Assembly: GCA_039621445.1 (NCBI GenBank)
Contig: CP154954.1
Location: 22,766,954 to 22,830,953 of the forward strand
Direction of reading: 5' to 3'
Source: Euglena gracilis
Taxonomy: Eukaryota
Length of the DNA stretch: 64,000 bases
In this document: positions 25,040-63,061 of the stretch, piece by piece
How the letters are laid out: each line of letters begins with the position of its first letter
Position numbering within the stretch: the first letter of the stretch is position 1
The notes under the pieces: generated by a model
Database searches by the model: none
What the model saw: only the letters and a program-made list of their open reading frames with translations
Told to the model about the DNA's origin: nothing
Translations under genes and position numbers: made by a program

Positions 25040-25725
25040 TTCGTACACGAATAAGTACGAATAATTACGAATAAGTACGAATTGCCGAGATCTGCCAAAA
25101 TACGAATAAGTACGAATAAATACGAATAAGTACAAATGAAAAATTCCCCAGTTACGAATAAGTACGAATTGAAAAGTGGAAAAAGGTACAATTTTCTACA
25201 CCATTGCAATGAGTTGAAGGGCCCTCACACTTCTCTGTATGTGATGCATATCTTATGTTGCAGGATGCCTCATGTCCTCTTTTCCCTCCAAAGATGATGC
25301 AGCTGCCACTCGGAGTCCTGCATGTTTTGCAATGGTGACTACGAAGAACACGTTGCACACCATTGAACAATCCGCTCGTTTCATCTTGAGTATTTGTTCG
25401 TGCATGGCATGCTGGACAACATCAGTCGCAAAGAAGGAATGTGTTTTTCTTGTTCTGTTTTGTATTTTTTTCTCACACCAATTTTCCCCCCACAAATTTC
25501 GCCAGAATGAGTTCGTCACTTAGATAGTTTCTCAAGTGAATGACCTGTTTTCTGTGCTTTTCCCGGTTTCAGAACGTTGAAGGTGTGCCCAAGGAGGCAT
25601 ACCAAATGGTCACCTATTGCTATACATGGCCCTTTTTTGAAGTACGAATAAGTACGAATAAGTACGAATAAGTACGAATAAGTACGAATAAGTGCGAATG
25701 GGCAAGGGAGTCCCCAAGTACGAAT
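25040..25725. repeat. Two clusters of the 10-bp GTACGAATAA repeat (probable subterminal repeats of a non-autonomous element)
   Basis: Arrays at ~25040-25170 and ~25640-25725. The flanks TCAGGACAAAGTCGGTG / CACCGACTTTGTCCTGA are inverted. Confidence 0.75.
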
Positions 25726-26037
25726 CAGTGGGAAACCCTGCAAAGTCGGGGGGGGTCCACCGACTTTGTCCTGAGTCCAAGGGACCCCCTTTCTTCTGGT
25801 GCAATCCATTTTTCCAACCATTACGGGTTGCGGCTGCCATACTCATAGTGTAAAGGAGCAAGGCACAGGAGGGAAGAGGGAGCAGCTACCGCAAAAACCT
25901 GGTCAAGGCATCCACGATGCCACTGAATGTTTCCAGGAGAAAAAACGGTAGCAGACAGTTGGTGCCTCCTCATTGCTTTCGCTTCGCGTTCTGGACACGA
26001 GCTGGCAACTTTAGCATGTCCTCATCGTCGGGGGGTA

Positions 26038-27525: not shown

Positions 27526-29183
27526 CTGTCATAGGAAAAAATAACATCTGGAAAAAATAACATCCGGAAAAAATAACATCTGAATAAATAACATCCAGAG
27601 AGGCTTGTCAAAAGGCACTTAAAGGTTATCTAGTTCCAGCGCTTCAATCGCCCGGACTGCGCCATTGTTTAGGTGGAGGGAGTGCAAGGCATTGCAAAAA
27701 AACTGGAGCGCACACCAGACATATCCCCCCCCCCACGAGTCATTGCCAGTTTCCCCCCCAGGGCCCCCACAGGACAGGGTCCTGGGGGGGACTGGCCATA
27801 AATGCCCCCCACACACCCCACACTTGACCAGTGTGGGCTTAAGGCAGGTGGGAGGGTCGGACTCCCCCCCGGTCCAGGAGGGGGGGTCGGGCATATATTG
27901 CAATAACTGGGTGATCCCAACACAAACAAATAGCATCTGGTATGAGAGTATCCAGAGCATAACCCATGAAACGGAACATTCTTTACTTCAAAAAGGCCAG
28001 TCTACCGTCTACAGTCCTAATCTGGACCTGAGCATGCTGCTAAACTGCTCCATTTTGTTGGGACTAAGCCCTCTTTGGCACCCAACGCCCAACGCACCTT
28101 CACACCCAAAAATGGCCAAGAACCTTGTCCCCTAAAAAAGGTGCCAAAAATTGGTGCATTTCCACACCCAAAACAGCATTTTTTGGCCATTTCTTCAAAA
28201 TGGCCATTTGGGAATTTTATCCTGGACCCAAAAATCACTGATTTTAGGATGCGTGCCGCCCTGCTTGTGATGGGATGCAACATCATGGATGCTGCCTCCC
28301 AACTACCTCCAAAGTGGCATTCTTCCCCCGTGACCCCCCCCGTGACCCGCACCACCCCCGATGGCGGAAGGTGGGGTGAGGACAATTCTTTTTGTTTTTT
28401 TTGGGGGGGGGTTTCTCCATAAAAAATTCATCTTTTTCATCCCCCCCCCTTTTTCATGCCGTTTTTTCAAAATGGCCCAAAATGCATCCCAAAAAAATGT
28501 GACGGTCAAGAAAATCAAAAAAAAAGAAAAAAATAACCAATATCGGACATAAAAATCACCCAAAAATGACCACTTTCGGACCAGAAAGCATTTTTTTGGT
28601 CAAAATGGCCCAAAAATGGCCAAAAATGACCACTTTTTGGACTTGCGCAATCTGCCCTTTTGCCAATAGGACTTTTTTTTGGTCAAATTCATACGGCAAA
28701 AAAGCGCCATTGTTTGGGTCGAAATTTTTTTCACCTCAAATCTTGGCATTTCTTTCCATTTTTTGACCATGTCAAGGCAAATTTCCGATGGTTTCAACCA
28801 GAAAATTGATGAAAAGCGACCAAACCGCCACCTACATCAAAAAGCAAATGATGAATGAAAAGTAAGGCTGAAGTGGTGAAGGTTGATGCATTGTATGAAA
28901 ATTGAAGGCTCAATTCTCGGGTCACCAGGGGGGTCATGGGGGGGGTCACGGGGGTAGCACCCCCATCGTGATGTCCTGCACAAGTAGTTTGCTCCTTTCA
29001 TGCTTCAGATGTTTTGCCTTGTGATGATTGTCACAGTCGTTCGTGTTCTTCATCCCACATCCTATCCACTTTATACATCTTATCTATTTTCGACTTAAAT
29101 GAAGAACAAATAACATCTGACCAAATAACATCTAAAGCGGCTTAGATGTTATTTTTTCCAGATGTTATTTTCTCCTATGACAG
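27526..29183. mobile_element. TA-flanked non-autonomous TIR element
   Basis: TA-CTGTCATAGGAAAAAATAACATCTGG... and ...CCAGATGTTATTTTCTCCTATGACAG-TA, with AAATAACATC subrepeats. Confidence 0.85.
28065..28964. mobile_element. 3-bp-TSD element copy C, internally rearranged
   Basis: The right end at 28359 is followed by GAT. The left end is inverted at 28964 and followed by ATC. Confidence 0.8.
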
Positions 29184-34100: not shown

Positions 34101-34762
34101 ACTGCGAACCATAGGAGCCGCCGCTGGGAGCTGGCTGGACCCCGCACTGCGTGTTGGTGTTGGTGTGCCTCACTTGCCGGTGTTGCTTCACGTTGGGCAG
34201 ATGTTTGAGCGGATAGGGGTGCCCTGGCCGCTCTGTAGGTGTGGTGGCAAGAAACATTGATGAAATATTGGCATGCAATAAACAGGATGACATCTTTTCC
34301 CCAACCCCACAAACATATGTAATATTTGCTATGTTATGAATACCCCGGGCAGGGTTCGATATAAGGAGGGCGCACGGGTTTTAGGTGGGGGGTGTCCCTC
34401 CCCCCACCCCTCCCCTCCTGGACGAGAAGAGGGGGTCCGCGAACCCCCCCCCCCCACCTGCCAAGGGAGGTACAGACCGACCCAGGGGGGCGGACCCCCC
34501 CCTAAAAGGTCAAGATTTTTCCTTCGGGTGTTTTGCACTGATTTTTTTTGCATTTTTGACAAAGTTTTGCCCAAAAAGTGAGCAAAATGGCATTTTTGGC
34601 CGTTTGGGGGGGGCAAAATTTTTCCGCCCAGTGCTTCGTGCCGTGCTGAAAATTGGTCACCTGGACCACGCCACTGTTTAGGTGGGGGGGGGCTCCCACC
34701 CCCCACGCCCACCCCCCCCTCCTGGTCCAGAGGGGGGGGGCGACCCCCCACCTGCCTTTTAT

Positions 34763-35711
34763 GGGGGTGCTACCCCCGTGACCCCCCCCGTGACCCGCCC
34801 GTGACCCGAGAATCGAGCCTTCAATTTTCATACAATGCATCAACCTTCATCACTTCAGCCTTTCTTTTCATTCATCATTTCAGCCTCCTTTTTGATGTAG
34901 GTGGCGTTTTTGGTCGCTTTTCATCAATTTTCTGCTTCAAACCATCGAAAATTTGCCTTGACATGGTCTAAAAATGGAAAGAAATGTCAAGATTTGAGGT
35001 GAAAAAATTTTCGACCCAAACAATGGCGCTTCTTTGCCATATGAATTTGACCCAAAACATTGGCAAAAGGGGAGATTGCGCAAGTAGGAAAGAATTTCAT
35101 GGCAAAAAGGGGGGAGGGGAAACATGAATTTTTTGTGGAAGAAAACCCCCAAAAAAACAGAAAAGAATTGTCTTCACCCCACCTTCCATTTGGACAACCA
35201 AACCCCTTTTTGGCACCCAACGTCCAACGCACCTCCACACCCAAAAATGGCCAAAAATCTTGTCCCCCCCAAAAAAGTGCCAAAAATTGGTGCATTTCTG
35301 CAACCAAAACAGAATTTTTTGGCTATTTTTTCCCCCTTCAAAAATAGCCATTTTGGGCCATTTTTTCAAAAATGTCCCAAAATGCATCCCAAAAAATGTA
35401 ACGGTCAAGAAAATCCTAACAAAATTCCTTTTCAAAAAAAATGAAAAAAATGACCAATTTTGGACATGAAAATCACCCAAAAATGACCACTTTCAAACCA
35501 AAAGGTATTTTTTTGTTCAAAAAATGGCCCAAAAAAATGGCCAAAAATGATTGCTTTTTGGACCTAAAAATCACCGATTTTGTGATGCGTGCAGCCCTTC
35601 TCGTGATGGGATGCAACAACATGGATGCTGCCTCCCGGCCACCTCCAAAGTGGCATACTTCCCCCGTGCCCCCCCCCCCCCCCGTGACCCCCCGTGACCC
35701 GCACCACCCCC
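34763..35711 (+). mobile_element. 3-bp-TSD element copy B (TSD TAT)
   Basis: TAT-GGGGGTGCTAC...GCACCACCCCC-TAT. Confidence 0.9.
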
Positions 35712-35993
35712 TATCAACCCTGCTCTGGGCTACAGCCGTGGGGGGCTGTGATGGAGGAAGCTGTGATGAGGGGAAAAAAATGCAGGGATTGGTGAGCTGG
35801 GTAGCCCAATTGGCTGGCCGGCCTTCGGCCGGCTGGGCCGGCCTGCGGCCGGCTGGACCCAACTTTATTTCACTTGACCCCCGGGGGGGGGGGGGGCTCC
35901 CAGTCCGAATTTGGGCTGCTGGCTGGATTTGAGCTGCTGGCTGGCTGGACCCCCCCGGGGGATGGGGTACCCTCCGGCTTACGAAAACCCCTG

Positions 35994-37206
35994 GTGGGGA
36001 CAGGTAAAAAATCTTTTACATCTTTGCCCTCTTTGCCGTATTTCTGCCGTTAATTCAGGTACAAGGCAATATACATACAGCACACTGGGAGTCATGGTTT
36101 GGTGTGGAATCGATAGAACAGGGAGCATCTCCATCAAGGAATGTGACGACAGAATGTATTCTGAGGCATGTATTCGACTCTTGGAATCTGCACTCACATT
36201 CATCACACGAAGGTATGTTAGGGCTGTTTCGATTAATCGATTAATCGATTAATCGTTTGTCATCGCCGATTAATCGAATCGTTCGGCCCATGACGATTAA
36301 TCGTTCATTGTGGATGTAAACCACAATAGACACAATATTTGTTGAAATCAACAAAAATTGGTAGGGTAGTCAGTCAGATAGCACACTACTTGCTGGTACA
36401 CCATGAAACGGTTGTTAAAAGTGGCCAACGAGTCAGCGAACGTGCCCGTGAAACATCGCGCGATTCTGATTAAGATACAGCAGTTCCTAATAAGCTTCGT
36501 TCTGCCAACAGAGAATGAAACAAAAATTCGTCAGCGGGCACACACAGAAATGGTCTATGTTCGATATTAGAATTTCTCAGGCAGATTTCATCATCAAAAA
36601 TCGGAAGGGACCAATTAATAGTCCGAGCCACCCCAATTAATCGCGATAAATCGTTCGCCAGCCCGAAACGATTAATTGGCACAACCCTACCCATGTGAAC
36701 CTTTCTCAGGACAAAATCATACCAACAAGACGGAGCGAGTATTCATAAGGCAAAGGAAACCATAAAATTTCTAAAGGACAAAAAGGTGAAGCTTTTCAAT
36801 CAAGGTATATGGCCACCCATGTTTCCGGACCTAAATTCGGATGAACATGTATGGCCATTGGTGACTAATCAGCTGCAGGGGCGTGTGTTTAATAGCAAAT
36901 CTGACCTATGGGTTGCCTTAAAGGCTGCTTTTGAGGCTATCACATCTGCCGCCATTCTGTCGTTGTATCGTTCCCTTCCTGACCGTGTCGCGGCTGTAAG
37001 AGCAGCTGCTGGCAGTCACACGAAATACTGAGAAGACACTGGAGAGATCCTCTGCCTTTGCCTTGCTGCACACCTGGTCGATGCATCATGTGGATGGATT
37101 CCGCTTCATTGTAATATTGTAAGAAAAGCATTTTGGTTGAAAAAAATTTTTTGGGGTCGTAAAGACTTTTGCACCAGTGTATCGTAAAAACGTATGTACC
37201 GCACTG
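35994..37206 (+). mobile_element. 3' half of a Tc1-like (DD37E) transposon with right TIR
   Basis: Exons VMVWCGI...ITRR and YQQDGASIHKA...WPPMFPDLNSDEHVW...GSHTKY*. The TIR at 37153-37206 ends CACTG-TA. Confidence 0.9.
36218..36689. mobile_element. hAT-like MITE nested in a Tc1 transposase intron
   Basis: TAGGGCTGT...ACAACCCTA ends with CGATTAAT subterminal repeats. No TSD is evident. Confidence 0.7.
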
Positions 37207-38989
37207 TATGTGTGCATATTTCAACGTCCACGCATGCATACTGCATACATACATTTACACAGGATGCACGTAGATCACACCATTGCTTACCAACCCCCAA
37301 GGGGAAGTTTCATTCCATTTTCGGGGAAAAAAAAGTCCGTCATTTTTGAAAATCTGGTGGTCACTCTTAGCAGTCTCTCCTTTCAGTCTGGGGGGGCGAT
37401 CCCTCCAAAGACCCAAAATCCAGAAACCCTAAATATCTACTGGCACGGAGCGAGAATGGAAACTTTCGTTTCTGACGGGATCCCAGGAAGGCATCTTTTT
37501 AACAAACCGGGGGGGGGGGCTTTTGCGATGGGGTGCCCCTCCTCCTTTACTGAAAGGGCGGACCCCCCCCCCCAACCCCACCTGGCCCTATTTCAAACCC
37601 TGCTCCCAGTAATGAAGTTTCTGGGGAACCGGCTGAATTTTAAGGTGTGGTCCACCAAGGGGTGGTCCCCCCCTGCTGCCCGGAGCACACAGCTTTGGGT
37701 CCCAGCCACGGCCCTCCGTCTGGGTCCCACCCAGACGAACCTCTCTTGGAACTGGCCATTTTTGGGCCCCTGGCCCATTCGGTGTCGGGGGGGGGGGGTG
37801 CTAAAGCACTAACACCCCCTGGGTGTGTCAGAATTGTCCCCTGCCCCGGGTTGCGATCTTTCTCAAACGACACCTGATCCCCGCCCCCTCCAAAAAAGGT
37901 GATAACGTGGATTGGGCGGGGGCCACCCAACGGGGGTGGTGCCCCCTCAGACATTGGAGCAGGGTGGAGACCACCGCGTCAACTCGAGCCAAGTGAACAT
38001 AAAAACAACAGGAAAACAAGCACAACACCCAGATATCGTCATGAAACAAATGGTAAGATAAGCCAACGGAAGGAAGACTGGAAAGAGGAGATGTCCAAAG
38101 CTGAGACCTGATGAGTAATGGATGATTAAGGATCAGGATGGAAGTCAAAATCACGAAATATGCAAAAAAACTGGTCAAAAAATTAGTACCAGAAAAAAAT
38201 CACTACCGGGCATCAATGAACTTGAAATAAAATTATATCGCACTGAGAAATAATCATCTTTTCTGTGAGAAATGCCTGATTGCGGGACAAAAACACCAAA
38301 ATCCCCATAGAATGCATCCCTTCAAAATTCAGGCCAGAATAAATTGGGAAGCAATATAAGAGTTATTTTTTGGCCATTAATCCCTTTCATTTGATTTCAT
38401 TTAATTCGACATTTCATCACACTGCAACACCAAATGATTAAGGATGGTGATCAACGATTAAAGTGTTGTGATAAGGCCTCAGCTTCGAGAAACCGGGGGG
38501 GAGGTCCGCTGGCTGGGATTTCCAATAGCTGCAGCCTAAAAGTCACCAGCTGGACCCCCCCGAGGAGGGTCCAAAGTCCTCCCCCAATCAAAGTTCTCCC
38601 CCAATTGGGAAATAATATATCTTCTGCGATTCATGCGGATGTGGAAATGAGACTTCTTACGGGTTTTTCTTGCTTTAATTTTTGTTCCCAAAAATCCAAA
38701 AAATGCAAAGACGGTTTTGTTTGCCAGTTACTGAACAAAACTTCCTCCCCCCCCCAAGTCCAGTCAAAATTGCACTGGCTGATTATGGTCCGCCTTGACC
38801 TAGCTCCATCCATCAAAATGTCGAAAATGCAAAAATGTGTTTTGTTTTTCATCGACCCAGCCCAGCCCAGCCCCCTCCAGCCCCGGACCCCCCCCTGGGG
38901 TCCAGCCAGCAGCTCATTTCCAGCCAGCAGCCTTTTTGCCAGCCGGAGGCTGGACCCCCCCCCCCCCCCGGTCCTTAAGAAAACCCCTG

Positions 38990-39853
38990 GTCCCCACGAC
39001 GCCTCCAAACTCGCACCCGCCCTCCAGGTCGAATTCGAAAGATTTTTTCGTCGCAAAAAATAACTCTTTCCCAGTTGAAATCAGAAAACTTTTCGGCGAA
39101 AGCCATCCTCTTGTTGATGTGGGAGGCAGACAGCAAAGGCTTGTGAGCAGCCCAGCAACTGTAAAACCCATGATTCTTCAACAGCCTGTGAACGGTCCAC
39201 CGAGAAAACTTGTGGGGGACCTGGGATGAAGAAATGAAATTTACCGGTCTCCAAAACCTTGAACACCAGGACTCTTTGGCCTGGACAGGTTTGAACAACC
39301 CCCTCACAAAATGTTTGTGCACGCTGTCCGCGATTCTACGGGAAGACCAAAATGGGTGCTTCTGAGCCACATTGAGTATCTTCCGCCGATACCTGAAAAA
39401 AGATTTTGGTACAAAAAAGGGTAGGAAGGGAATGGCAAAACCTGGCAGTCATTTCTGAAGGTCTGCCACTCCTTGGCTTGTCTTTCACAATTGGACTATT
39501 TTTCGCATCCACAGGCTTATTGTCCGCTTTCCACTTTTTGATTGTGTACTGGACACAGCCCTCCGTTACGCCAAACCTCCTGGATATTTCACAGTTGTTG
39601 CACCCAAGCAAGTGTAGCTCTATAATCTTCTCACGGCGCCTTTCAGCCGCATTTTTTTTTTGCGGAGAAGGCATTCTGTAAATCTGAGAAAGGACGCGGA
39701 GGTATGCGGACATGAAAAAAAATGCACACAAATCCAAACGAGCACACAGCACGCACCCTTACCCCTGGAATTATCCAGCTCAGAAGCCCCCTGTTTACGG
39801 GGGTCGTAAGGACTTTTGCCCCAGTGTATCGTAAAAACTTATGCACCGCACTG
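38990..39853 (-). mobile_element. 5' half of the same Tc1-like transposon with left TIR
   Basis: TA-CAGTGCGGTGCATAAG TIR at 39800-39853. Exons MPSPQ...PRSGRP, ...KPLLSASH..RMAFA and VIFCDEKIF..VWRRRGD, with two short GT-AG introns. Confidence 0.9.
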
Positions 39854-40567
39854 TATATATCTTTAGCTCAAGGGTTGGGATCGTCGCGCCAAAAATTGGC
39901 CTATTTAGGGGCAAAAGTTAGGCCCGACGTCAAGCAAATACCCATCTTTCCATGAACATGTTGGTGGGTTACCGTTGCTTCGGGACTTCACGCGCCCTTT
40001 GGGGACAGACAAAGAAAATCATCGGGCCCTCGCCAAGGGGACCCCCCCTCCCCCGCCAGTCGGCTTGCCCTCAGCGCTGGAGCAATCCCCCTGTGCAGGT
40101 CCCGCTGGGTCGTCCGGTGCGTGGAGCGGCGCCCGCCCAGCCACCGCCCCGCCCTCCTCGTTACGCTGCGCCCGGGGATGAATGGGGGTCCCTGACACCC
40201 TTTGGGTGACGTCAGTAGGATGTCACAGGCTTTAGATGGGCAGGGTCCCCTTTGACCAGGGGGCAGGGCTGTACGGGAATCCCCACAATCCTATGGGTGT
40301 TTGGTTGGCCTTCGACCCCCCAGGCCTTCTCGTATTCCCGAGTGTGCCAATCTTTAGGTCAAAAATTTTCCTTCAGTGCCGAAGGATTTTTTCTTGCGTG
40401 GGTGTTGTGGCGGGCAGGGGGTCGACTTCGCGGGTGCGGGGATCGACCCCCCCCCACCAGGCCTTCCCGTACAGCCCTGCAGAGGGAGGGGAGCTCAACC
40501 CCCCACCTGCCCCACCCCGCCCACCCCCATCCCGAAACAGAGTGAGCCCCTCGCCTTCCCGCACAGC

Positions 40568-40821: not shown

Positions 40822-41824
40822 GTTTGCATTGTGAACCCCCGTTGAATTGCCTGCCGAAATTTTCGGATTGGCGAGTCCCCCCTTTTCCCCCAGCTCACCA
40901 ATCAGGGATTGGTGAGATGCGCACAGGAGGGTTAAAAGACCTATGTGGAATTCCCCTGGGCACCGCCCCCCAGATGAACCGATAATAGAACAATTGGGGA
41001 GAGCATTTCGTCTCGATGTCCCACCTCCTCAACAATACGCGTCCTCACCAGGGCGTCGCGTAAGCCCTGGTGGGCCCATCCCTGGGGCATCCAGCCAGCC
41101 AGCACCCTTTTCCAGCCAGCAGCCATGGACCCCCCTCCCCAGGAATAGATGAGAAGCCCTTCGGTTTTGAGGTAGGTGGTAGGGGGGTACTGACCACCTC
41201 CCCCCCCCCCTAGATGTTGGGAGGGGGTGTCTGGAAACCCCCTCCTCGACAGGTTCCCAAAAAAATAGCGAAAATTTTGCTTCTGGAACAACGCCGGAAA
41301 ATCAGCAAAAAAAGGGATTTTTGACCAATTTTGGCCTGGGATCCTGCCCTTTGTCCGTCCACAAAACCGAAAGTTTTCTGGGCCCACGTCAGTTTCGAGG
41401 TTGGAGGGCGTGTCCGACCCCCCCCAGGGCTCCGCCCCCCCCACCTTCCCAAGGCTTCCACATCTATCCCTGCTCCTCCCCACGACAAGTTTTTTTTCTT
41501 TTTGCAGCTGCAGCTGGATAGTAATGGATTTCTTGCTCCCGGGGTGCAAAAATAGTCAGAGTTCTTTTTGAATAATCAAACCAGCAGAAACGGCCCAAAA
41601 TGGACCTCCCCAGAAACGGGGGGGGGGTCAGGTGAGGAAGCGGAACTCGCTTCCTCCACTCCACTTCAAACCAACAAAAACGTGTGGGTCCTTCTGGTGC
41701 CTGGGTCATAAACGTCGAATTCTGCGTGCCTCACCCAATCCCGAGCCCCAATGCGGGGGAGTGCCGTACTCGGTCGTCAAATCAAGGACCTCAGTGGGTT
41801 CAGCATTCATGTTCACCTCCTGTA

Positions 41825-42052
41825 ACCCCCCCCCCCAAATAACCTGGCGGGGTGCCAGGTAATTGGAGCCAACTTTTGGCCTGCCCCCCCCCTGCCAGGT
41901 AATTTGGGCCCTTTTTTTCAGCGTCATAAACGAATTTTTACCTTAAAGGGGAGGTGCCAAGTAACTGGAACCATCTTTTTTGCCCCTCCCCCCACCAAAT
42001 TATTCGGCCCCCGCCAGGAGCAAGGACCCCGCCAGGTTATTTGGGGGGGGGT
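41825..42052. mobile_element. TA-flanked MITE
   Basis: ACn AAATAACCTGGCGGGGT and its reverse complement at the other end. Confidence 0.8.
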
Positions 42053-43152
42053 TAACGTTTCCCATTTGCGAAAACCTGAGGATGCCTCACCCTCCTTTCT
42101 TGATATCATGATAGGAATGCCAAACTGGAACATGGCTACAATTAACGCTGTTTAACAATTGAGTGCTCGCGAACATCCCCCCCAAATGTTTTGGATTTGG
42201 CATTCGCAAATCCTGATTGATTGGTTGGAGAAATTCCTAATTTGGGCGCCGAGAAGGAACAAAACCAGGGGGGATAGTCCTGGCTCGAGGGTTGCCCTAG
42301 AGAAACAATCAAAATTTGTTGAACATCCATCTACTGATATCTGGACGTTGATGAGAAACCCCTGCCCCCAATAGAAAATAGAAGTGCCAAAAAACATGGG
42401 TAAAATGGATTGGTGTTGGGCTGTCCAGGGCAAATTTTGGTTAAAATCAATTTTCTGAATGATTGGAAGTGTGTGACCCTGGGACCCACGCAGGCAGGAG
42501 GGGGCGGGCTCAGCCAGCAGTCTTTTTCCAGCCAGCCCAAATTCTCCGTCCTCTGATCTGGACCCTCTGGGGGGTCGTTAAGCGACGCCCTGGTACACAG
42601 TGCGCATGCATATCGGATTAAATGGTTTCTAATCAAAAAACCAGAGAGGGCCAAAAGTAGTCACTCACTCACTCACTCAGAAAAAAACCAGTCAGTCATC
42701 CCCCAAGGGGTCAGACACACCTTGGGGTGGGGCTGGAGGGGGGGAACCCATTGGGGGGGGGGGTTCATTTTTTGCGGCCCCAAAATTTTTTTGAGCTTCT
42801 GCTGAAAAATGGCGGGGTGAACACCAGCCCCAGACACTCCCAGACTCCCAGGGGTGGAGTTGGCCAGAACCAGCTGAAAGTGGCTGAAAATGTCCACTCA
42901 GTGCCAAAGTATGTGTGTGTACCCAATACGCACGGAAAATCCCCACTTTTTTCTCCATATCTGCAACACATTTTTGATGCCTGGTTTCCACATGCCGAAT
43001 TTTCCCCAGGTCTCTGCTACTTTCCATTCCATGCGGCATTCCGGTTTGCCATGGGGTGACACGCCTGTTTCCTGGCTGGGCGGGTGAGAGATCCCCAGCC
43101 CTTCACGCCCCACGCCCCGGCCCCCAGGCCCTTCCCCGCGCCCGCATGTTGC

Positions 43153-44794
43153 ATGGATGGGACGCAGTACTTCGTGGGGGGCCTGTCCCCGGAGACAACG
43201 GACGATGACCTGCGGGTCCATTTCGAGGCGTTTGGGGCGGTGTGCCGGGACGGCGGGGAACCCCCATGTCTTCGGGGAGGAGAGTTGGCCTACGCTTTCT
43301 TCCGGAGAATTTGTTGTCTCGGCAGAGTGATCCCGTGCACCCATTGCTTGCCGACCACTGGGGGCAGGGGGGTCACGTTCCCTTTCAAAAAATCCATTCT
43401 AAATCCCCCCAGGTGTAGCGTAAAAAATGGTAATATAGGGTTTAGGGTTAGGGTTTACCGCTCCAGTCATCCAAAATCAACAAATTTCGACCACATTTTC
43501 GAAAAGCCACCGGCGTCTTTGGCAGTGGGCAGCTTAGCTTTGGCAAGTTTCCCCCCCCAACTTGCAGGACTTGCAGGCGGGGGGAGAGGAGCTGTCCATG
43601 CAGTTTGCTGGTGTCTGTGCAGGTGCTGGAGGCAAAGGTCATGCGGCTCAAGGGGACGTCACAGTCGCGAGGCTTTGGGTTCGTCACCGTCCAGGTGTGA
43701 TTCAATTCGCCTTTTCGCAGCACACATTTGAGGGAATCTGGTTTGTGTTTGATATATCTTTCTCAATATTTCAGTCCCCCTCTCGATATAGCTTTTTTCT
43801 GTCGACATTTGAGCCTTTTCGTTTTGGATTCTTAGCGTTTTCACACTCGGTTTTGGTTTGGAATCCAATTTTTTGGCCAAAACCAAAAGAAATTGAACAT
43901 GGGTTCAAGGCAGGGGAAGTTTAGCTACAAAATCTGATGTCTCTACCGATATGCGATAAAAGACGGTGACATCCAAAATCAGGAATTCCCAACCAAAACT
44001 GGGAGTTGCTCGATAAAAAAAAAACTCTGCCCCTAGAACCCCATAATTTTAACATTAGACCAGAAATTTAGCAATTTGCCTCTGAAAATGAAGTGTACAT
44101 CAGATGCACGCATTTTCCACCAACGTAGAGATTCACATTCCCAAATTTTGGTATTGCCCAACAACACTCCAGCTTTAAAATCCACCACCATATTTGCACC
44201 CCCTCCACCATATGTGAAATTGTTATTTCCAGTGATTTTTTTGTTGGCGGTGCCACCGATTTTCCCCCATGCCCAAGGCCCATTCTTGCACTCAGGAACG
44301 TTCAATTACAAAAGTTGTGGCGCTGCCTCTTAGTCGGTTTTGTCGCGCCCCCTTTTGTTTCTCTGTCCTCCCTCCGACAGTTCCTGCTTTCCACAAAGGT
44401 ATTGGCAGTGATGGCAGGTCCCCCTGTCGCGCACAGGAGGATGAACTGGCCCTCACCACCTCGGAGCACTGTATCAATGGCAAGGTGGTGGAGGTCAAGC
44501 TGGCAGTGCCTGGTGCGGGCCTCTCCCGCCCAGGGTCCACGTGGGACGTGGGGGGGGGTTGCATATCTGTGCCCCAACACAAAAGCTGAACCCAAATCCC
44601 CAAAATTTCTGGAGACTGACAGGGATGTCATCACCACACAGTTTTTGCGTGTTGTTTTTCTTTTTTTCAGTTTTTCCTGTCGATGTGTGTTTTGCACCGC
44701 CCTAAGACTTATCCGAAGGGCCTGTGCTGCACTGGCACGCGTGCGCACACTTACACGCACAAACATATAACACGCAAGCACGCACACACACACA

Positions 44795-44829
<35 letters not shown>

Positions 44830-44886
44830 ACCCACCCACCCACCCACCCACCCACCCACACACACACCCACACACACACACACCCA

Positions 44887-44968
<82 letters not shown>

Positions 44969-47900
44969 ACACACGACCACACTCACACACACACACACAC
45001 ACTCAACACACACACACACCCCACACGCACACGCACACACACACGCGCGCATGCTGCATTGCCTGCCACTCTACCCAACAGCCCATGAGATGCACCTGCT
45101 GGTGAAGACTCGACGGTGCTTCGTCGGGGCGCTGCCACGGGATATCCTCGTGGAGGAGCTGGCAGCCCACTTCCAGCAGTTTGGCCGCGTCACCGCTGTG
45201 GAGCTGCTGCACGAGAAGGGCACCGGCAAATTCCTGGTAGCCCCCCCCCCCCACGTGAGGTCGAGTGTCATGGAGGCGGGGTCCCCCGTTACCTGTCGGT
45301 AATGCAGCTTGTTCACATGGAGGAGTTCTCACCAGCTTTTCTGCTATTTGAATTTGAGCGCTTGGTATTTTGTTGTTCGTTGCAGAACTGTGCATTTGTC
45401 ACATTTGAGAACGACGACGGGGCGGATTGCGCGGTGCGCTGCTCAGTGCATGAGTTCCGCGGGAAGCGGGCAGACGTGAAGAAAGCGGACCCCAAGCCCC
45501 AGTGTGCTCCGACCCCCCTTGCGTTCCCTCCTGCCCCGAGGTTGTGAAGTTGCGGGTGAGTGCTTGTGCTGTGGTGGCCTAGCCCCTGGGGCAAACCAGT
45601 TGGTTTCTTGTCATTCACCCGTCAACCACATGCCATGATTTCTCCGCGGCAGTGCGTTGTGTCCGCCTCGCTCCGCCAACTGCCTGCCTGCCACTGCCAT
45701 GGAGGTCCCTGTGCACGTCGATGTCTCTGCAGGCGGGAGACGATGGGGCCCCTCGGCGTGCCCCTTGCTCAGGCCTCGGAGGAGTGTGACACAACCCCAG
45801 ACCAGATGAGGGGGGCCTCCGGCTGGACTGCGAATGAAGGGGTTTGTTCTTGTTCTTTTGGAATGGCCGAAAGAGACGCCCCCCCAGCGGCAAAACTGGC
45901 GCTGTCAGCCACGTTTTGGGCACGGTCGCCCTCTCCAATCCCCCAAATATCACCCTGGTCGCAATTGCAGCACTTTGCACTAGACACAACCCCAAAACGT
46001 TTCAGAGGTTTTTCTGCAGTAAATGGCCTCCACCTGTCAAACAAACCTGTGGTTTCCCCCTTCTATTTTTTGTTTGATGAATCTTGCGTGAAAGACACAG
46101 ACCCATCCGAAGAAATGGATAGCTTCTTTGCGCGTTAATGTCAAGATTATTCGCCCAAGTTCTGCTGTGTTCGCGCGTCCAAATCACACGCCGCACAGGG
46201 CTGCAGTTGTGTCTCGGGGGCGTTCCGCCACCCGACACTCCCCAGCCACCCCGCCTCGATTTGGCACACCTTCTAGTGCAGTGCGGGTGCAGTGCGGGTG
46301 CAGTGCGGGTGCAGTGCGGGTGCAGTGCGGGTGCAGTGCAGGTGCAGTGCGGGTGCAATGCCGGTGCAATACGGGGTCTCACCCCAGACCCCACGGAGAC
46401 CCCCCCCCTCCGGAGGCCACGCCCCTGCTGGGGCCTGCCCCCAGCCCGGACTGGGCGCCCTCCCCCGCTGGGGGCCGGCCCGGTGCGGCGCGTTCCCTGC
46501 CGCTCTCATGGCCGGCCCCCCACCCCCCTATGGCGGTCCCAGCCCAGGGGCGAGGACCAGGGCAGTACGGGAAGCGGCCAAACAGCCAGGGTGGTGGGGG
46601 GCAGTCAATCACTTCGTCACTGGCTGACCCCCCCGGGGGGGGGGGTGGCTGACTGGTTGTTTCAGAGTGACTGACTGGTTTTTGGCCCAGACCCCCTCCC
46701 CCAGGGGGCTCAGCAAAAATCCACTTAAGTGACCCGGCGCTGAAGGCACCGGAAAAAAATGGCTTTTTTTCATGTTTTTGGTCAAATTTCCTTTGGATTC
46801 CAGAGTGGCCGCCCCCCCCCCCCCCCGGGGGTAGTGACTGACTGGTTTCCCAAAAAAGTGACTGACTGGTTTTTCGAGGGGTCGGTAAAAAATTGTATGG
46901 TGGGGGGTCGACCCCCCCCCCCCCACCTCCTGCATTGTGGGTGAGGGGGCGGTCGACCACTCCCCACCACCTCATGCCGTATTTCTGGGAGCACCAATTT
47001 TCGACCCCAAATTTTTTTCCCACTGCCAAAGGCGCCGGGTGGATTTGTAAAAAAAAATCTGTGAAAATGTTGTGGTGGGTGGGGGGGGTCGACCCCCCAC
47101 CTCCAGGTTGGAGGGTGGCCCCCAGGCTGTTTTTTAGTTGGGTGCCGACCCCCCCCCCCGGGGTCCGGCCACCTCCACGTACACAGACAAAAAGGGCCAG
47201 AGGCGAACAACAGCGCCGGGCCAGAAGAAGGGAGCACCAAAAAAAACAGCCACAGTGCACACAGGGGGGGTGCCTGCCTGGGCAGGCACTCACAGGCACT
47301 CCGGACCCCCCCTCCCCCCCCCCGGGTGGGTAAGAAACAGCCTGGTCGCCCCCCCCCCAAGCCACCCCGTACAGCCCTGGGGACGACGCACTGGGACAGC
47401 GCGGCGGCCGCCTTCGGGCCGCCGGCGCCGCTCCCCCTCCCGGGCCAGAAGCCCCGCCGGGCGCAGGACGTCACCGGTCGGCCCCCCTCTTCACACCGCC
47501 GTGCGCTGCCTCCCCCTTCTTTGGGGTCGCACTCAGTGCCCCAAAGTTGGCTTTCTGTGCACAACAACCCCAGTATCGGGGGTTTGTGCCTCACGGGCAG
47601 AGGGTTCCCGCTCCAAGTTCGGCCAGCGGTCCGGTGGCTCTGGGTTTGGACCACACCCCATGGCCAAGTGACGAGGGGGGGGGGCTTTCTGTTCCGAGGT
47701 GGCGGGAGGGCCGAACAGCTCCACTGAAATCAAACGCAGTCCAAGCCTTTAGAGCTGGCTCGGGAGCGGATGGATCAAACCGAAGCAGGGATTTTCCGAA
47801 TCCATTTTCCCGCCGTCTGCCAGGTATGTATTTCGTCGGCGGGCTGAACAGAGCCACCACAAATGAGGACCTCCGGGATTATTTCTTGCGCTTCGGTGAG

Positions 47901-49990
47901 GTGTGTTGGTGATTGCATCTTTTTTTTATTCTATCTCTGGCTGTGCTCATGCCGAGGCCGCAGGCACATGGTTTTTGTCAAGAAAAGAGGGGCATGGGCC
48001 CTCCACCACTCTAAATTTTCAAACCAATGCGGTCCAGTTGGCTATCTTCTTTCTTCACCGTCTCCTGCATTTCGCTGGGCAACGGATTCGGTCGCCTTCT
48101 TGGTCCTTCGACTAACAAGAGGTCAGTGCAAGATTGCCCAACAGTAATGCTCATTGGCTTTTCAAAGGACGCCTTCACCGATGACCCTGTTGCCAACCGC
48201 CAGTGGTTGAGTCCAAAAGGCTGCAAGCTGCCCCCCCCCCCACCCCCCACCCCCCACCCCAGGCAGACGCGTGCATCACCGCCACACCGCCCTGCCCCCC
48301 CAGGTGAAGCAGGCGCGCGTCGTCGTCCAGGATGGCAAGTCGCGGGGCTTTGGCTTCGTGACGTTTACCAGCCCGGAGGAGGCGGTGCGCAACGGACTGC
48401 CCAGGAACGGCTGCGAGGCGCCGTCGTCTGGTCGCGCCCCGATCCCAGGGTGGCACAGGCTTTGAAGGAAAACTTCCGCCGGAGGAGACAATTTTGTTTT
48501 GGTATTTCTGGGCACAGAACTTGGGGCGGGAATGCTCTTTGCCCCTCTCCTTTGCACCCCTGCACCTGTTTTTTGTTGTTTTCTGTGGAAGAAAATTGTT
48601 TCTGGTTTTGGATTGTGAGGACGGATGAAACACACTTCTGATGTTTTTATCGCGTCCAGTTGCACGTAACCCTTTGAGTCAAACCCCCCACCAAATGGTG
48701 CAGCATATGCTTCTAAAAGGTTTCCAAACGGTATAACAGGTTTATCTTTTGTCTCGATTCAGTGGTGGGAAGTGTGTTATTTGCGCGAGTCTAAAGAAAA
48801 TTCTGGCTCCAAGCACTCGAAAATTTGTGGAAATGATAAAAAAAATGATCAATGGGAAATTTTTTTGTTTACTCAGAATGGGGGGGACTGGGGAGTCCAA
48901 GACCCACCTGGGACGGATGAAACAGAGCCCGGGGTGGCACGCCGCTCGTCAACGCCCGTTTCTTGTCGCCGATGGTGCATGCCCACACATTGCAGGGGAA
49001 CACCCTCGACGTGAAGAGTGCAGTCCCTGGTGCGCCTCATTCCCCAGCCTCTGCGCGCTCCCCCCTCGCCTTTGCCTGGTCAACTGGTCCTCCGCCCCCA
49101 GCCAAACGCTCAAAAGAAGAACGAGAACCATCTTTCCATTCCATACAGCCGAGAGTTAACTTGCCTATTGGATGGACGGCTGTCACGCTTCTGCTTTTGT
49201 ATTTGTGTTCCCTTCCGTGGGAATGGGCTGCAGCGAGGCCAAACGTCGGCCAGGGACGGCAAGTGGACCCCCCCCCCATTGCTTTAGTTGGGCAAAGCAA
49301 CTCATCGCACCACCTTCAGCGTCAGTCAGCTCAGAGTTCCCTCCAGGGGGCTGACTGGGCGCTGTAGCCTCTGGGCGGGAAATGGTTGAAGTGCCTCCGT
49401 TCCCGGGCCCCTCCCGTTGCGGGCCCGCAGAGGAGGAGCTGGCGACGGTGATGCGGACGCGGCGGATCTTCATCGGGGCGTTGCCGCCCACCGCCACCAC
49501 AGAGGTCCTGTGGGAGCACTTCCAGCAGTTTGGACGGGTGTGCGCCGCCTTCCGCCGGTGGCTTCGCCATTCAGGGGCGTGGTGCATGCCTGGAGACGTG
49601 CCAGGCGACCGGCCTGTGGGCTGTGAAACTTTATTACCGTTCGACCCCCCGGGGGGGGGGGGGTCCGTAGCCCAGCTACGAGCTGCTGGCTGGAAAGCCT
49701 GGCGTTGTGGTGTGTCGGCCGGGCGGTGAAACCCAATGCCGGTGTCCTCCGCAACGTTGCCCCAGGTCCCTGGCTCAGTGTGGCGCCCCCCCCCCTTTCT
49801 TTCCCACTCCCCGGTGTCCTCGTGCCTCAGCCCCACCCCCTTCCTCCTCCCCACGCAAATGGCCAGCCACCGGCACTGCTTTCCCCACCTGATCCAGCGC
49901 TATACGGAGCTGCTGCCCCTCTGCGATGGGGCCATAGATTCTCTTAAACCCCCAGAGAGTGATCAGTCTGGCCTGGTACAAGTGTTTTCA
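43153..49990 (+). CDS. Multi-exon RNA-binding protein with 3-4 RRMs (Musashi/hnRNP A/D-like)
   Basis: Exons near 43153 (YFVGGL), 43623 (RGFGFVT), 44436, 45081 (CFVGAL), 45387 (CAFVTF), ~46390-46583, 47350, 47824 (YFVGGL), 48304 (RGFGFVTF), ~48970 and 49430 (IFIGAL). Most introns are GT-AG. The 3' end is uncertain. Confidence 0.85.
44780..45050. repeat. (CA)n/(CACC)n microsatellite (intronic)
   Basis: Visible directly in the sequence. Confidence 0.95.
46277..46360. repeat. 11-bp tandem repeat GTGCAGTGCGG
   Basis: About 7 copies. Confidence 0.9.
46584..47349 (+). other. Non-conventional intron (AGC-CAG...CTG-GTCGC)
   Basis: Removal joins GQYGKRPN to PPPKPPRTALG in the frame that leads into RRM3. 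The interior is MITE-like. Confidence 0.65.
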
Positions 49991-50361
49991 AGGGTTTCGG
50001 GCAATTGGCACCCCCCCCCCCAAGAGAAGCACGGGGCCACCACAAGCGCAGGGTCCAAATAAAAGCGCCTCCCCCCTACGAAGGTGGCGGTCCAGCACCC
50101 CCCGTTTATGATAAGATATCTGAAGGAAACCAACAAAAATCACACGGCTTGGGTCCAAATACCAGCGCACCCCCCCCCCTCGCCGCCAGAGGCGGCGGTC
50201 CGCGCACCCATGCTTCTATTAGGCTGGGGTGGGAGGTTAGGTTTTGGTGGGTGAATGGGTGGGTGGGTGGATTGATCTCCCTGGGGGGTCGTGCGTGGGT
50301 GGGCACCTGAAAGAAGGTGGGGTTGGGCCCAAGGAAATGCGTATTCACGAAGGGAATGCCT

Positions 50362-51991
50362 ATGGGCAGGGCCACCCTCATCGTGTGGGACGTGGACGAC
50401 ACGCTGCTGTGCACCACCGCCACCGCCGGGCCCCGCAGCGCCCAAAGGCCCCCTGGCTCCCGTTGCATGACGTTCACCGGCCCCGTCCGACCCGCCCCGC
50501 CGGGCGCAATCCTCCAACGTTTTACGCGGAAGGTGGACACCACACTGGCACACTTTGCACCGGCGCGTTGTTCGCTGTCCAGTGAGGCATCACACGTTCC
50601 ATCCCTTCCATCCCTGGCTCGCCTGAGGCAAATCTTTGCCCGGTGGGGTGAGGCAGCGGTCGCATTCAGGCTGTTTCTCACCGCCAAAGAACACCCCCCT
50701 CCAGGCAGGGATGTCTGGGAAGCCTGTCGGTGTCCGGTATAGGTGGGTTGTTGGGGGGCCCGGACCCCCCCCCCCCGGAAGGGTGCCCGGACTCCCAGCC
50801 CCCCTTTTCAGGTTCCAAAAATAGCGAAAAATTTTGCGGTGCTGCGCACCTTAAAATGCGACGTTTTTTATCTTTTGGTGTTTCCCACATAAAATTTTTT
50901 CGAAGAATTCGAAAACTGAGCTTTTTGGGGTTTTTTCTTAAAGAAAAACCAGGGACCTTTCAACGATTTTGGCTGGTATCCAGCCTTTTGACCGTCCACA
51001 GAACCGAAAATTGTCCCGGCCCCTCACCTTTTTGAGGTAGGAAGGGGTCCGACCCACCCCTCGTTGGGGGAGGGCTTGGACCCCCAGGGCTTCCCATACA
51101 ACCCCCACCCACCCCCCCCCCCCCCCGGGGGGGACTACAGCACAATTGTGAACAGGTTGTTCACGACACTGTCGGACTCCGTGGGTTAGCCAACAACAGC
51201 GTTGTTGCCCTCTGGCCGCTGGGACTTTCCCCAGAGGAGTGTTTGCCTGCGGCCTGGTGGACGAGCAGGGGCTGGCCGACCTCCTCGCAGCGTGCCGGAA
51301 CCTCCCCGCCCAGGCTCCTTTTTCCCTTGGAAAGCCCCCCACCCAGGGGGTGGGTGGTTGGGTGGGTGGGTTTCGACACAAAGTGCAGGAAAACTGTTAG
51401 AAATGCCGGGTTCCTGCACCCCCCCCCCCCCGGAGTCCCGTGGTCTTAAAACCAGCCTGACCCCCGACCCCACCCACCACCTACTGCTGACCGCCGGCTC
51501 TGTCACGGACCTTTTCATACGGCAGAGCGACCGCCACGTGCCGCGCCTCCGTCCCTTCCGCCGGCATTTCGGCGTTCCCCCCAGGCCCCCACCCGCTCCC
51601 CTCCGTGTGCTGAAGAGCCCCTCCCATCCTGAGAGCTGTCTTTTTTTGTCATAGTTTAGTGTAGTTCAGTGTTTTGTTCACCGGTGGCCTTCTAATTTGA
51701 TGAGCGGACTCCGGCTGTACTTTTTGAACCGAGGACCTGTCTCTGACCCTGGGCAGTCACATCTTCCAATCAGGGTTGTTTCTGATTTGCTGCATGTGTT
51801 TGGGAGGGTGGTACGCTCCGGCCCTCCTTCCAATGGCCAAAGGAACAACCCTGCTCCAGCTGCCCGACAGTCGTCATTTCACGCTGGATGGGGCCGTTGG
51901 CATATCGACGAAACGGGACGCCCTCCCGCCCTCTTCCCTCTGCATCCACCTGGAGGATGCCTCAAAGTTGTGTGTGTGTTTGGGTGTGTGT

Positions 51992-52069
<78 letters not shown>

Positions 52070-54537: not shown

Positions 54538-63061
<8,524 letters not shown>

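Follow-up and report, generated by a model that had tools for sequence, protein, structure and literature searches.

Termini of a candidate hAT-like transposon family at an 8-bp duplication in an inverted Tc1/mariner pseudogene of Euglena gracilis, and their relation to non-conventional introns

Within a 64,000-nt window of Euglena gracilis nuclear DNA (contig CP154954.1, positions 22,766,954 to 22,830,953), a left and a right terminus of one transposon family were found joined to a Tc1/mariner pseudogene at a cut staggered by 8 bp, and each terminus adjoins one copy of GTGGGGAC. The two 16-nt sequences at these junctions are left-type and right-type termini of a non-autonomous family of cut-and-paste DNA transposons. 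The locus is probably best explained by hAT-like termini, an 8-bp target duplication, an inversion, and related elements that are spliced as introns. Although it is an inversion and no simple insertion, the locus supports a transposon origin of Euglena's odd introns. The origin of euglenid non-conventional introns, which make up 71.8% of the introns in E. agilis, is openly called unclear. Derivation from MITEs has been suggested in the literature since 2014, on the strength of their inverted repeats and 'TSD-like' repeats; a mobile copy outside a host-gene intron was not found described in the literature searched. At the present locus the sequence before insertion can be reconstructed, two identical copies of an 8-bp target are present, and the ends are like those of a verified intron 12 kb away. 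The features of the locus are as follows.

35783..35993, minus strand: TE1, a short element of 211 bp with a left-type terminus ending at 35993 (terminal 16 nt at 35978-35993)
35915-35944, minus strand: CCAGCCAGCAGC subterminal repeats of TE1
35994..36001, plus strand: first copy of the 8-bp target duplication, GTGGGGAC, part of the Tc1 codons R-G-D
36002..37208, plus strand: 3' half of the Tc1/mariner pseudogene, with a frameshift near 36090; GT-AG intron 36004-36058, exon 36059-36213, and an exon from about 36709 to the stop codon, whose open reading frame is listed as 36699-37031
37206, plus strand: end (CACTG) of the Tc1 right inverted repeat, with TA at 37207-37208
37209..38862, no strand: DNA inside the inverted interval, either former Tc1 flank or the interior of the element that bears the right end
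38863..38989, plus strand: TE2, a right-type end region whose inner boundary is not defined; its CCAGCCAGCAGC repeats (38902-38931) are followed by 15 consecutive C and, last, by the terminal 16 nt (38974-38989)
38990..38997, minus strand: second copy of the 8-bp target duplication, reading GTGGGGAC on the minus strand
38998..39855, minus strand: 5' half of the Tc1/mariner gene, with HTH domains and two short GT-AG introns read by eye
39853, minus strand: start (CAGTG) of the Tc1 left inverted repeat, with TA at 39854-39855

Both junctions quoted in an earlier, sequence-only reading of this DNA are present. The first, CTTACGAAAACCCCTG|GTGGGGAC at 35978-36001, consists on the plus strand of CTTACGAAAACCCCTG (35978-35993) and GTGGGGAC (35994-36001), followed by AG|GT. 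The second, CTTAAGAAAACCCCTG|GTCCCCAC at 38974-38997, consists on the plus strand of CTTAAGAAAACCCCTG (38974-38989) and GTCCCCAC (38990-38997), followed by GACG; GTCCCCAC is the reverse complement of GTGGGGAC, and the minus strand here reads CGTC-GTGGGGAC-CAGGGGTTTTCTTAAG. The repeat is exactly 8 bp long, because the bases next to the two 8-mers differ on either side (C/G before, C/A after). In all three public Tc1 relatives compared (tblastn), the R-G-D codons occur a single time: P0001 reads ...WRRRGDR and then YKAKY, P0002 reads RRKGERYNPKY, and the stretch in P0003 is likewise unduplicated. The eight bases, which adjoin CAGG...CCTG termini as had been claimed, have therefore genuinely been duplicated within Tc1 coding sequence. 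Read in the orientation of the element, each flank is GTCCCCAC, which makes a direct repeat and not an extension of the inverted repeat. By itself GTGGGGAC is not rare (4 sites in the window, 4.97 expected), so its weight comes from its position in the Tc1 reading frame. The 16-mer, with one position left free, has zero-mismatch matches in the window only at these two sites, and at up to 3 mismatches it matches 5 sites against 3.45 expected.

All of the features that define Tc1/mariner elements were found in the target: an HTH and DDE_3 transposase, CAGTG-type inverted repeats, and a TA duplication. The 5' half matched Pfam HTH_Tnp_Tc3_2 (E=1.1e-12) and a PAX-like HTH, positions 86-145 of the 146 in Pfam DDE_3 were matched in 36699-37028 (E=9.7e-07), and the terminal repeats read CACTG|TA at 37206-37208 and TA|CAGTG at 39855-39851 of the minus strand.

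The earlier reading had described a 3-kb MITE simply inserted into the Tc1 gene, a picture that fails on the orientation of the two halves, which lie on opposite strands. For each of the three relatives, tblastn aligned the N-terminal part to the minus strand, with its end at 38987-39005, and the next part to the plus strand at 36061-36219. It follows that the 16-mers are direct repeats on the plus strand and that the 8-mers are in inverted orientation. Both termini face the same direction, and the interval between the cuts, 35994-38989, includes the Tc1 3' half itself. Nor is 35975-38997 an inserted element, since the Tc1 3' half lies within it (36002-37031, with the right end at 37206), along with about 1.8 kb of other DNA. 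The segment 37209..38862 showed no similarity to the interior of the complete family member described below, only short G/C-run repeats.

One left and one right terminus, probably not from a single freely excised element, were thus joined to the Tc1 pseudogene at its R-G-D codons, where the cut had an 8-bp stagger. Two neighbouring elements may have moved jointly by the ends that faced each other, in reversed-ends alternative transposition, inverting 35994-38989; or a normal insertion may have been inverted afterwards. The geometry, as analysed here, would fit either an inversion by reversed-ends transposition, as in maize Ac, or a later inversion. In maize, the inversions described from reversed-ends transposition have a transposon at both breakpoints, and the two termini carry an 8-bp duplication (PMC8225341); the Tc1 locus shows the same arrangement.

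The assignment of left and right ends was made by reference to a complete family member, E3; a further element with inverted termini lies within an intron.

41049..42592, plus strand: E3, complete family member of 1544 bp with termini CAGGGCGTCGCGTAAG and GTTAAGCGACGCCCTG and flanks GTCCTCAC and GTACACAG
47123..47344, plus strand: element of 222 bp with inverted termini CAGGCTGTTTTTTA and TAAGAAACAGCCTG and flanks GTGGCCCC and GTCGCCCC

The family is characterized by CAGG...CCTG tips and by a conserved subterminal stretch of about 90 nt that contains CCAGCCAGCAGC repeats and long C/G runs, and the interiors of its copies are unrelated; a sensitive blastn search of the Tc1-associated pieces against E3 found no shared interior. 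In E3, the CCAGCC repeat module points away from the tip, into the element, at the left end, and towards the tip at the right end. Of the two junction termini, the one at 35993 shows the left-end arrangement, and its surroundings (35914-36006) match 41036-41124, at the left end of E3, at 76%. The one at 38989 shows the right-end arrangement, with the repeat module oriented to the terminus as it is at the right end of E3. 35881-35961 matches the reverse complement of 38889-38971 at 74%, because the repeat module is present at both ends of the element. The far boundary of TE1 at 35783 (CAGGGATTGG) is putative, being drawn only from similarity to 49572-49708, and it is doubtful because that supposed fourth copy is itself a doubtful family member, overlapping a GT-AG intron and an exon of an RRM gene. 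Local-alignment searches for partner ends were dominated by G/C runs.

Clean 8-bp duplications, which the earlier reading expected of other copies, were not seen around the other family copies in the window. The flanks of pairs with family-type tips match at 7/8 positions for 47123-47344 and at 5/8 for E3 (each with terminal inverted repeats alike at 13/14), at 4/8 for 40264-40479, where 6/7 is a better fit, and at 1/8 for 13089-14683. Across the window, 8-bp repeats around any CAG...CTG pair showed no excess and no peak at k=8. Exact flanking repeats numbered 15 at k=7, 6 at k=8, and 0 at k=9; none of those six, from 82,230 CAG...CTG pairs, had inverted termini. Requiring terminal inverted repeats of at least 6/10 and at most 1 mismatch left four pairs (9811-10051, 41140-41472, 47123-47344, and 57756-60860), and with the terminal-repeat filter CAG ranked 32 of the 64 trinucleotides. 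The exact 8-bp case at the Tc1 site is the only one in the window, and it lies in a rearranged locus. Two further candidates were discarded. The boundary of 41140-41472 (flanks 7/8) is wrong, as a homologous copy at 50693-50837 includes the 'flank' itself, and the apparent 7-bp duplication (CAAAGTC) of 25024-25740 is a subterminal repeat of a larger palindromic element at 24976-25773.

The strongest competing history, which we judge rather unlikely, is the ordinary insertion of one element of about 1.5 kb, similar to E3, into an intact minus-strand Tc1, followed by inversion through recombination with a second, inverted family copy or through unrelated breakage, with one breakpoint within or at the element and one past the right end of Tc1. 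It would leave the same product at both Tc1 junctions as the reversed-ends mechanism. Recombination between inverted transposons also inverts internal duplications (PMC8225341), and the repeat module is present in direct orientation at both ends of the complete element. If inverted copies had recombined, however, the two resulting chimeric elements should have outer flanks that are reverse complements of each other, and those at the putative boundaries 35783 and 38863, AAAAAATG and ACCCAGCC, are not. An assembly error at repeats could mimic an inversion. We consider it very unlikely that the inversion is such an artefact of a repeat-rich spot, with a real element colinear between the Tc1 halves: short repeats, inverted and direct, and long G/C homopolymers crowd the region and are error-prone for assemblers, but both junctions are clean to the base, each has a different (left or right) end, and the 1.2-kb Tc1 3' half is intact in the flipped part together with its own terminal repeat. 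Least probable of all is that two different Tc1 copies lie tail to tail, each derived from a Tc1 that already bore the insert and each with its other half deleted. The window contains no proof that both halves come from one copy, and the two terminal repeats are only 85% alike over 72 nt; this history, however, requires deletion to have occurred twice independently, both times stopping at or close to the distal end of the insert, and the missing halves were not found in the window by tblastn or blastn.

The sequence features point to a hAT-like DDE transposase as the enzyme that would have moved these termini, on the basis of the 8-bp duplication, tips of which some match YARNG, an nTnnnnAn target, and asymmetric subterminal repeats. 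hAT elements make 8-bp duplications and have a terminal motif YARNG, which CAGGG fits (PMC3014272), and Hermes targets follow the pattern nTnnnnAn, with T2 and A7 (PMC10368747, PMC2803484). The 8-bp length was found for one event only, at the Tc1 site. CAGGG is present at 41049, 40264, and 46558 and, as the reverse complement, at 35993 and 38989, while CAGGC at 47123 and 51311 (intron I3) misses position 5 of YARNG. GTGGGGAC, GTCCTCAC, and GTACACAG all fit nTnnnnAn and GTGGCCCC/GTCGCCCC fit only T2, in a very small sample; GTCCTCAC, the left flank of E3, is identical to the Tc1 target at 7/8 positions. A Pfam scan of 150 of the 158 open reading frames of at least 135 aa in the window (2 of the remaining 8 were scanned separately) found no hAT or other DNA transposase besides Tc1. 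A different superfamily with 8-bp duplications, P-like (7-8 bp) or Merlin, is an unlikely but appreciable alternative. P-type elements have 7-8 bp duplications and CANRG tips and would fit equally well; CANRG would suit intron I1, with its CATAG...CTATG termini, and introns whose spacers add up to 7 (I5) or 8 better than YARNG does. Two Merlin families with 8-bp duplications are reported in E. gracilis (PMC8101967). Merlin elements combine an 8-9 bp duplication with family-specific termini, and while the length fits, the copies aligned in supplementary file 4 of that paper end in ...cagacaagtac, unlike CAGGG. Targets of the form nTnnnnAn and asymmetry of the subterminal repeats have both been documented for hAT elements and argue against a superfamily other than hAT.

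The link to introns was examined with two spliced proteins (P0005, P0007), by which 19 introns were mapped, 8 of them GT-AG compatible and 11 not. Two of the latter bear directly on the comparison.

46555..47388, plus strand: non-conventional intron R7 of a 4-RRM gene, core 46558-47379, CAGGGCAGTACGGG...CCCGTACAGCCCTG
51305..51466, plus strand: non-conventional intron I3 of a HAD-like gene, core 51311-51459, CAGGCTCCTTTTT...GGTCTTAAAACCAGCCTG

R7 is 830 nt long, an 822-nt core plus 8, and P0007 matches at 48/48 residues over the junction, with 5 equivalent junction positions; I3 is 158 nt long, a 149-nt core plus 9, and P0005 matches at 54/55 residues. The earlier reading had likened the Tc1-associated terminus to two intron 3' ends, TAAGAAACAGCCTG at 47331-47344 and TTAAAACCAGCCTG at 51446-51459. 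The resemblance stands for the latter, which ends the real non-GT-AG intron I3, but not for the former, which ends the 222-bp element, nested inside R7 with its termini paired in a fold. The 3' end of I3 and the right end at the Tc1 locus (38955-38989) have in common a C run, GG, TTAA, an A-rich stretch, and CCTG. A pattern of this form, C{7,}GG-N0-14-TWAR-N4-9-CCTG, gave 4 matches against 0.02 in shuffles, a figure that is illustrative only, since the pattern was devised after three of the four matches were known and shuffling breaks C runs. Two gene models were set aside: position 50668 (CAGGCTGTTTCTCACC) as the 5' partner of 51459, since P0005 shows the short intron, and the RRM region as two tandem genes with 47123-47344 between them, since P0007 represents one 4-RRM gene with the element in R7.

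CAGG... and ...CTG termini (TTG in R10) are present in 7 of the 11 non-GT-AG introns, and all seven introns of this CAG...CTG type start with CAGG. Their length minus core is 8 in five, 9 in one, and 7 in one; it is also 8 in an eighth intron, I1. The published splicing code is N3-CDG...CHG-N5-6|R (PMC12501133). R6, R7, I4, and I7 follow it, as does I3 in its N6 form and R10 except for TTG, while I5 deviates with spacers that total 7; hypothetical colinear Tc1 junctions would also follow it, as GAC-CAG...CTG-GTGGG|G. A newly gained intron of E. agilis is described as carrying 8-nt direct repeats (PMC4770533). In the six introns with a spacer sum of 8, the flanks match at 24 of 48 positions, compared with 12.4 +/- 3.2 in a shifted-position control (P about 0.0005) and 19.0 +/- 2.6 when flanks were re-paired among introns (P = 0.054), so the greater part of the signal may come from a consensus common to the junctions and not from a duplication specific to each pair.

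These data suggest that in expressed genes the same kind of element may be removed from RNA as a non-conventional intron. The RNA would lose the core and one copy of the duplication, and the introns would for that reason read N3-CAG...CTG-N5 (3 + 5 = 8). The Tc1 copy cannot itself be a removed intron; its halves are on opposite strands, so no one transcript can span both. Judged from its sequence, it probably works like an intron precursor and is not an intron.

An 8-bp duplication would account for the spacers of 3 and 5 in the splicing code, and the MITE-origin hypothesis becomes countable in duplication length (8), tip (CAGG), and candidate superfamily (hAT-like). Alternative transposition may also contribute to the rearranged, repeat-rich Euglena genome. 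A broader proposal can be offered only tentatively: that the whole class of euglenid non-conventional introns goes back to insertion of a single hAT-like kind of transposon with 8-bp duplications, that the N3...N5 code and the purine-A-C start of the exons downstream are a fossil of that duplication and its nTnnnnAn target, and that the family was active so recently that it struck a transposon pseudogene and drove reversed-ends inversions, its transposase thereby reshaping the E. gracilis genome as well.

Reversed-ends transposition of maize Ac/fAc (PMC8225341, PMC1592236) likewise involves one left and one right end; both breakpoints of the resulting inversion have a transposon end, and the copies of an 8-bp duplication are divided between them in inverted orientation. 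In contrast, the Euglena event is deduced from one static sequence without a progenitor allele, the inverted segment is only 3.0 kb, and the target is the gene of another transposon. With non-autonomous hAT elements (maize Ds1-type; Hermes/Ac ends), the family shares the 8-bp duplication, CAGGG (which fits YARNG) at some of its tips, the T2/A7 target, dissimilar left and right subterminal regions with short repeats, and copies that are alike only at their ends. It differs in having no transposase partner in the window, several relatives with CAGGC tips, extreme C/G homopolymers beside the tips, and a euglenid host; hAT elements in a euglenid were not found described in the literature searched. 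Like the euglenid non-conventional introns (Milanowski 2014/2016; Nomura 2025), it has CAG/CTG near ends that pair with each other, 3-nt and 5-6-nt spacers, and direct repeats at the junctions. The Tc1 copy, however, is no intron of a host gene and cannot be spliced out in its present inverted state, and its two 8-mers are identical, unlike the flanks of the introns mapped here, which agree at 2-6 of 8 positions. Introners are removed by the spliceosome at GT/AG sites co-opted from the element or the duplication, whereas euglenid non-conventional introns, without GT-AG, are released as circles by unknown machinery (PMC11282704). In the introner or MITE-derived introns of Micromonas and dinoflagellates, as proposed here, short elements with terminal inverted repeats and target duplications turn into introns, and one copy of the duplication goes out with the element (PMC11282704).

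The stretch at 35975-38997, which a sequence-only reading had taken for a MITE inserted in a Tc1 transposase, is instead an inverted segment with half of the Tc1 element inside it, and the locus has the structure of an inversion that carries the signature of alternative transposition. The parts of the Tc1 element were located as follows.

36699-37028, plus strand: ORF with the terminal part of DDE_3 (Pfam, positions 86-145 of 146)
37206-37208: end of the Tc1 right terminal repeat, CACTG|TA
38978-39448, minus strand: ORF with HTH_Tnp_Tc3_2 (Pfam, E=1.1e-12)
39339-39758, minus strand: upstream ORF of the Tc1 5' half, with a paired-box-like HTH (Pfam)
39853, minus strand: start of the Tc1 left terminal repeat

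A search in which the query was the C-terminal 81 residues of the 5' half returned three Tc1 relatives (P0001-P0003). In tblastn, the N-terminal part of all three aligned to the minus strand, ending at 38987-39005, and the part that follows aligned to the plus strand at 36061-36219. Along the plus strand, the element end at 35993 is followed by GTGGGGAC and the forward Tc1 3' half to 37208, then by about 1.65 kb of other DNA, the element end at 38989, GTCCCCAC and the reversed Tc1 5' half; both element tips point rightward, and the two 8-mers are mutually inverted. Similarity searches (tblastn and blastn) found no second Tc1 copy in the window.

The junction sequences first quoted are real, and both 35978-36001 and 38974-38997 are present as stated. 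Plus-strand positions 35978-35993 are CTTACGAAAACCCCTG, followed by GTGGGGAC at 35994-36001 and AG|GT, and positions 38974-38989 are CTTAAGAAAACCCCTG, followed by GTCCCCAC at 38990-38997 and GACG; the 5' junction had been quoted as the minus-strand reading of 38974-38997 with the GACG stretch. A 16-mer with one free position had zero-mismatch matches in the window only at 35978-35993 and 38974-38989. Because the bases beside the two 8-mers differ from each other on either side, the repeat is exactly 8 bp long. In the element's own orientation GTCCCCAC stands on both flanks, and this is a direct repeat, not an extension of the inverted repeat.

Comparison with the relatives showed the same duplication in the protein. 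The Tc1 5' half in the window ends in VWRRRGD, and the 3' half begins with (R)GD-R, a GT-AG intron (36004-36058) and then YKAIY. All three relatives cross the junction once: P0001 has ...WRRRGDR, a retained short intron and YKAKY...GVMVWC, P0002 has RRKGERYNPKY, and P0003 has ...VWIPANEDRYVARY... at the corresponding stretch, without the repeat. The R-G-D codons are present twice in the window and once in 3/3 relatives (a protein-level comparison only), as expected of a target-site duplication. The 8-bp duplication claimed for Tc1 is therefore exact and well supported, and from the sequence an empty site would be expected to carry a single GTGGGGAC between ...AGGCGTC and AGGTAAAA.

Inside its second intron, the Tc1 3' half also holds an unrelated TIR element of 471 bp (36219-36689), with arms TAGGGCTGTTTCGATTAATCGATT and AAACGATTAATTGGCACAACCCTA (19/24 complementary), many CGATTAATCG palindromes in its interior, and TA at the start and end of each arm; a TA duplication, as in a Stowaway/Tc1-like MITE, is possible.

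Several further elements with related ends were found in the window.

41049-42592: complete relative, 1544 bp, tips CAGGGCGTCGCGTAAG and GTTAAGCGACGCCCTG, 13/14 complementary
47123-47344: nested element, 222 bp, TIR 13/14, flanks GTGGCCCC/GTCGCCCC matching at 7/8
40264-40479: extragenic copy of a second terminal sub-family, 216 bp, perfect 17-bp TIR, flanks matching at 4/8 as an 8-mer and 6/7 as a 7-mer
13089-14683: candidate element, 1595 bp, family-type tip CAGGGTGGTTAAAAAAAAAATCC and then a G run, TIR 11/14

In the complete relative, two CCAGCCAGCAGC-like repeats form a module that reads inward and lies about 45 nt in from the left tip; a second copy of the module, reading outward, lies 55-80 nt before the right tip. 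The left arrangement was found at the 35993 end, where 35914-36006 and the reverse complement of 41036-41124 share 76% identity, and the right arrangement at the 38989 end; these tips are one left end and one right end. No relatedness was found among the element interiors by sequence comparison. Non-autonomous elements usually retain only their ends.

A common repeat of about 950 bp (34773-35712 and 21317-22245, 91.6% identity; partial inverted copy at 28641-28966, 90%) directly precedes the region with the left-type end. At 34333-34366 a right-type-like tip, GTTATGAATACCCCGG, faces a left-type-like tip, CAGGGTTCGATATAAGG, 1 nt away, and these could represent either a pair of neighbouring elements or a joined-ends product.

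The transposase would be hAT-like, making a staggered 8-bp duplication. The 8-bp duplication and the target with T2 and A7 match hAT features, the latter being the Hermes target nTnnnnAn (PMC10368747; PMC2803484 Table 8, examples GTGTGAAC and ATGCGGAC). The CAGGG tips fit the hAT terminal motif YARNG (PMC3014272), but the CAGGC tips at 47123 and 51311 do not. GTCCTCAC, which flanks 41049-42592 on the left, has 7/8 identity to the Tc1 target, and this may be read as target preference. No hAT transposase was found by Pfam in 150 of the 158 ORFs of at least 135 aa, which matched only reverse transcriptase and RRM fragments; two of the other eight were covered by a separate Pfam scan. Two minus-strand RVT_1 ORFs (2362-2994, E=6.7e-17; 8954-10903, E=6.1e-12) adjoin long ORFs of 436-651 aa and are probably retroelements.

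The inversion would have arisen by reversed-ends transposition, in which one left and one right tip take part, both breakpoints are left with a transposon, and the two copies of the 8-bp duplication end up one at either breakpoint. Such geometry is described for maize Ac/fAc inversions (PMC8225341, sections 12 and 15), which share all three features with the Tc1 locus. Recombination between inverted copies may instead lie behind the inversion, since it gives a similar picture according to the same source; the outer flanks AAAAAATG (35775-35782) and ACCCAGCC (38855-38862), however, are not reverse complements, a weak argument against recombination, and the boundaries at 35783 and 38863 are themselves uncertain. 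That the apparent inversion is an assembly error is very improbable.

Introns were mapped with two spliced proteins. P0007 (472 aa, eukprot: EG_transcript_8216) matched the exons from 43153 to 49540 at ~100%, so the window is from Euglena gracilis or something very close; 8 of its 11 mapped introns were GT-AG compatible and three (R6, R7 and R10) were not. This 4-RRM gene accounts for residues 1-361 of P0007, whose final 111 residues matched nothing in the window, the next gene being an unrelated HAD-like one that begins at 49859; at residues 194-199 the genome has 14 nt (46485-46498) versus the 12 needed by the transcript. P0005 (224 aa, HAD-like) matched exons from 49859 to 53571, and none of its eight introns (I1-I8) was GT-AG compatible. 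Long microsatellites of the (TG)n/(CA)n and related ACn types, translating as PTH/THTH repeats, lie at 44780-45060, 51990-52060, 56175-56450 and 63480-64000; one forms the 5' end of I6, so the I6 borders slide over 7 positions.

CAGG... and ...CTG termini were found in seven of the 11 non-GT-AG introns (TTG in R10). Intron length minus the core between these termini was 8 in five of them (R6, R7, R10, I4 and I7), 9 in I3 and 7 in I5; I1, with CATAG...CTATG termini, also gave 8, and I2, I6 and I8 were outside this classification. This pattern is in line with that of published euglenid introns in the splicing code N3-CDG...CHG-N5-6|R (as given in PMC12501133) and in CAG at +4..+6 and CTG at -8..-6 (PMC4770533), and we infer that the 3 + 5 = 8 spacers are the duplication.

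The proposed link between transposon ends and introns held in part. In addition to the spacer arithmetic, 51446-51459 is the 3' terminus of I3 (mapped with P0005), whose end shares with 38955-38989 a C-run, GG, TTAA, an A-rich stretch and CCTG. In contrast, 47331-47344 is not an intron end but the right tip of the 222-bp element, whose ends pair in a fold and which sits within R7, 35 nt ahead of its terminus; it is a second instance of insertion into non-coding DNA. R7 itself (46558-47379) belongs, with 40264-40479, to the sub-family CAGGGCTGTACGGGAA...TTCCCGTACAGCCCTG, a further pairing of extragenic copy and intron.

The Tc1 site is the sole clean case (n=1) of such elements making an 8-bp duplication: flanks of other family-type pairs matched at 7/8, 5/8, 4/8 and 1/8, and a window-wide count showed no excess of 8-bp repeats. 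The 1/8 match is that of AGTGCACT and AACAATTC at 13089-14683, the left flank being a perfect palindrome. Flanks of the six spacer-8 introns matched at 24/48 positions, versus 12.4 +/- 3.2 at shifted positions and 19.0 +/- 2.6 after re-pairing flanks among introns (P = 0.054), so a shared junction consensus may account for most of this signal.

The proposal that euglenid non-conventional introns originated from MITEs goes back to 2014 (PMC3935182) and was repeated in 2024-2025 (PMC11282704, PMC12501133, PMC12621601), and the parts available of these four papers call the repeats 'TSD-like'. One newly gained intron of E. agilis carries 8-nt repeats, which the authors ascribed to double-strand-break repair (PMC4770533). 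In the literature covered, largely outside the subscription journals and in part as partial text, no duplication-length rule, superfamily or extragenic copy was found for these introns. The find is no new kind of thing, but a useful and testable sharpening of the published MITE hypothesis.
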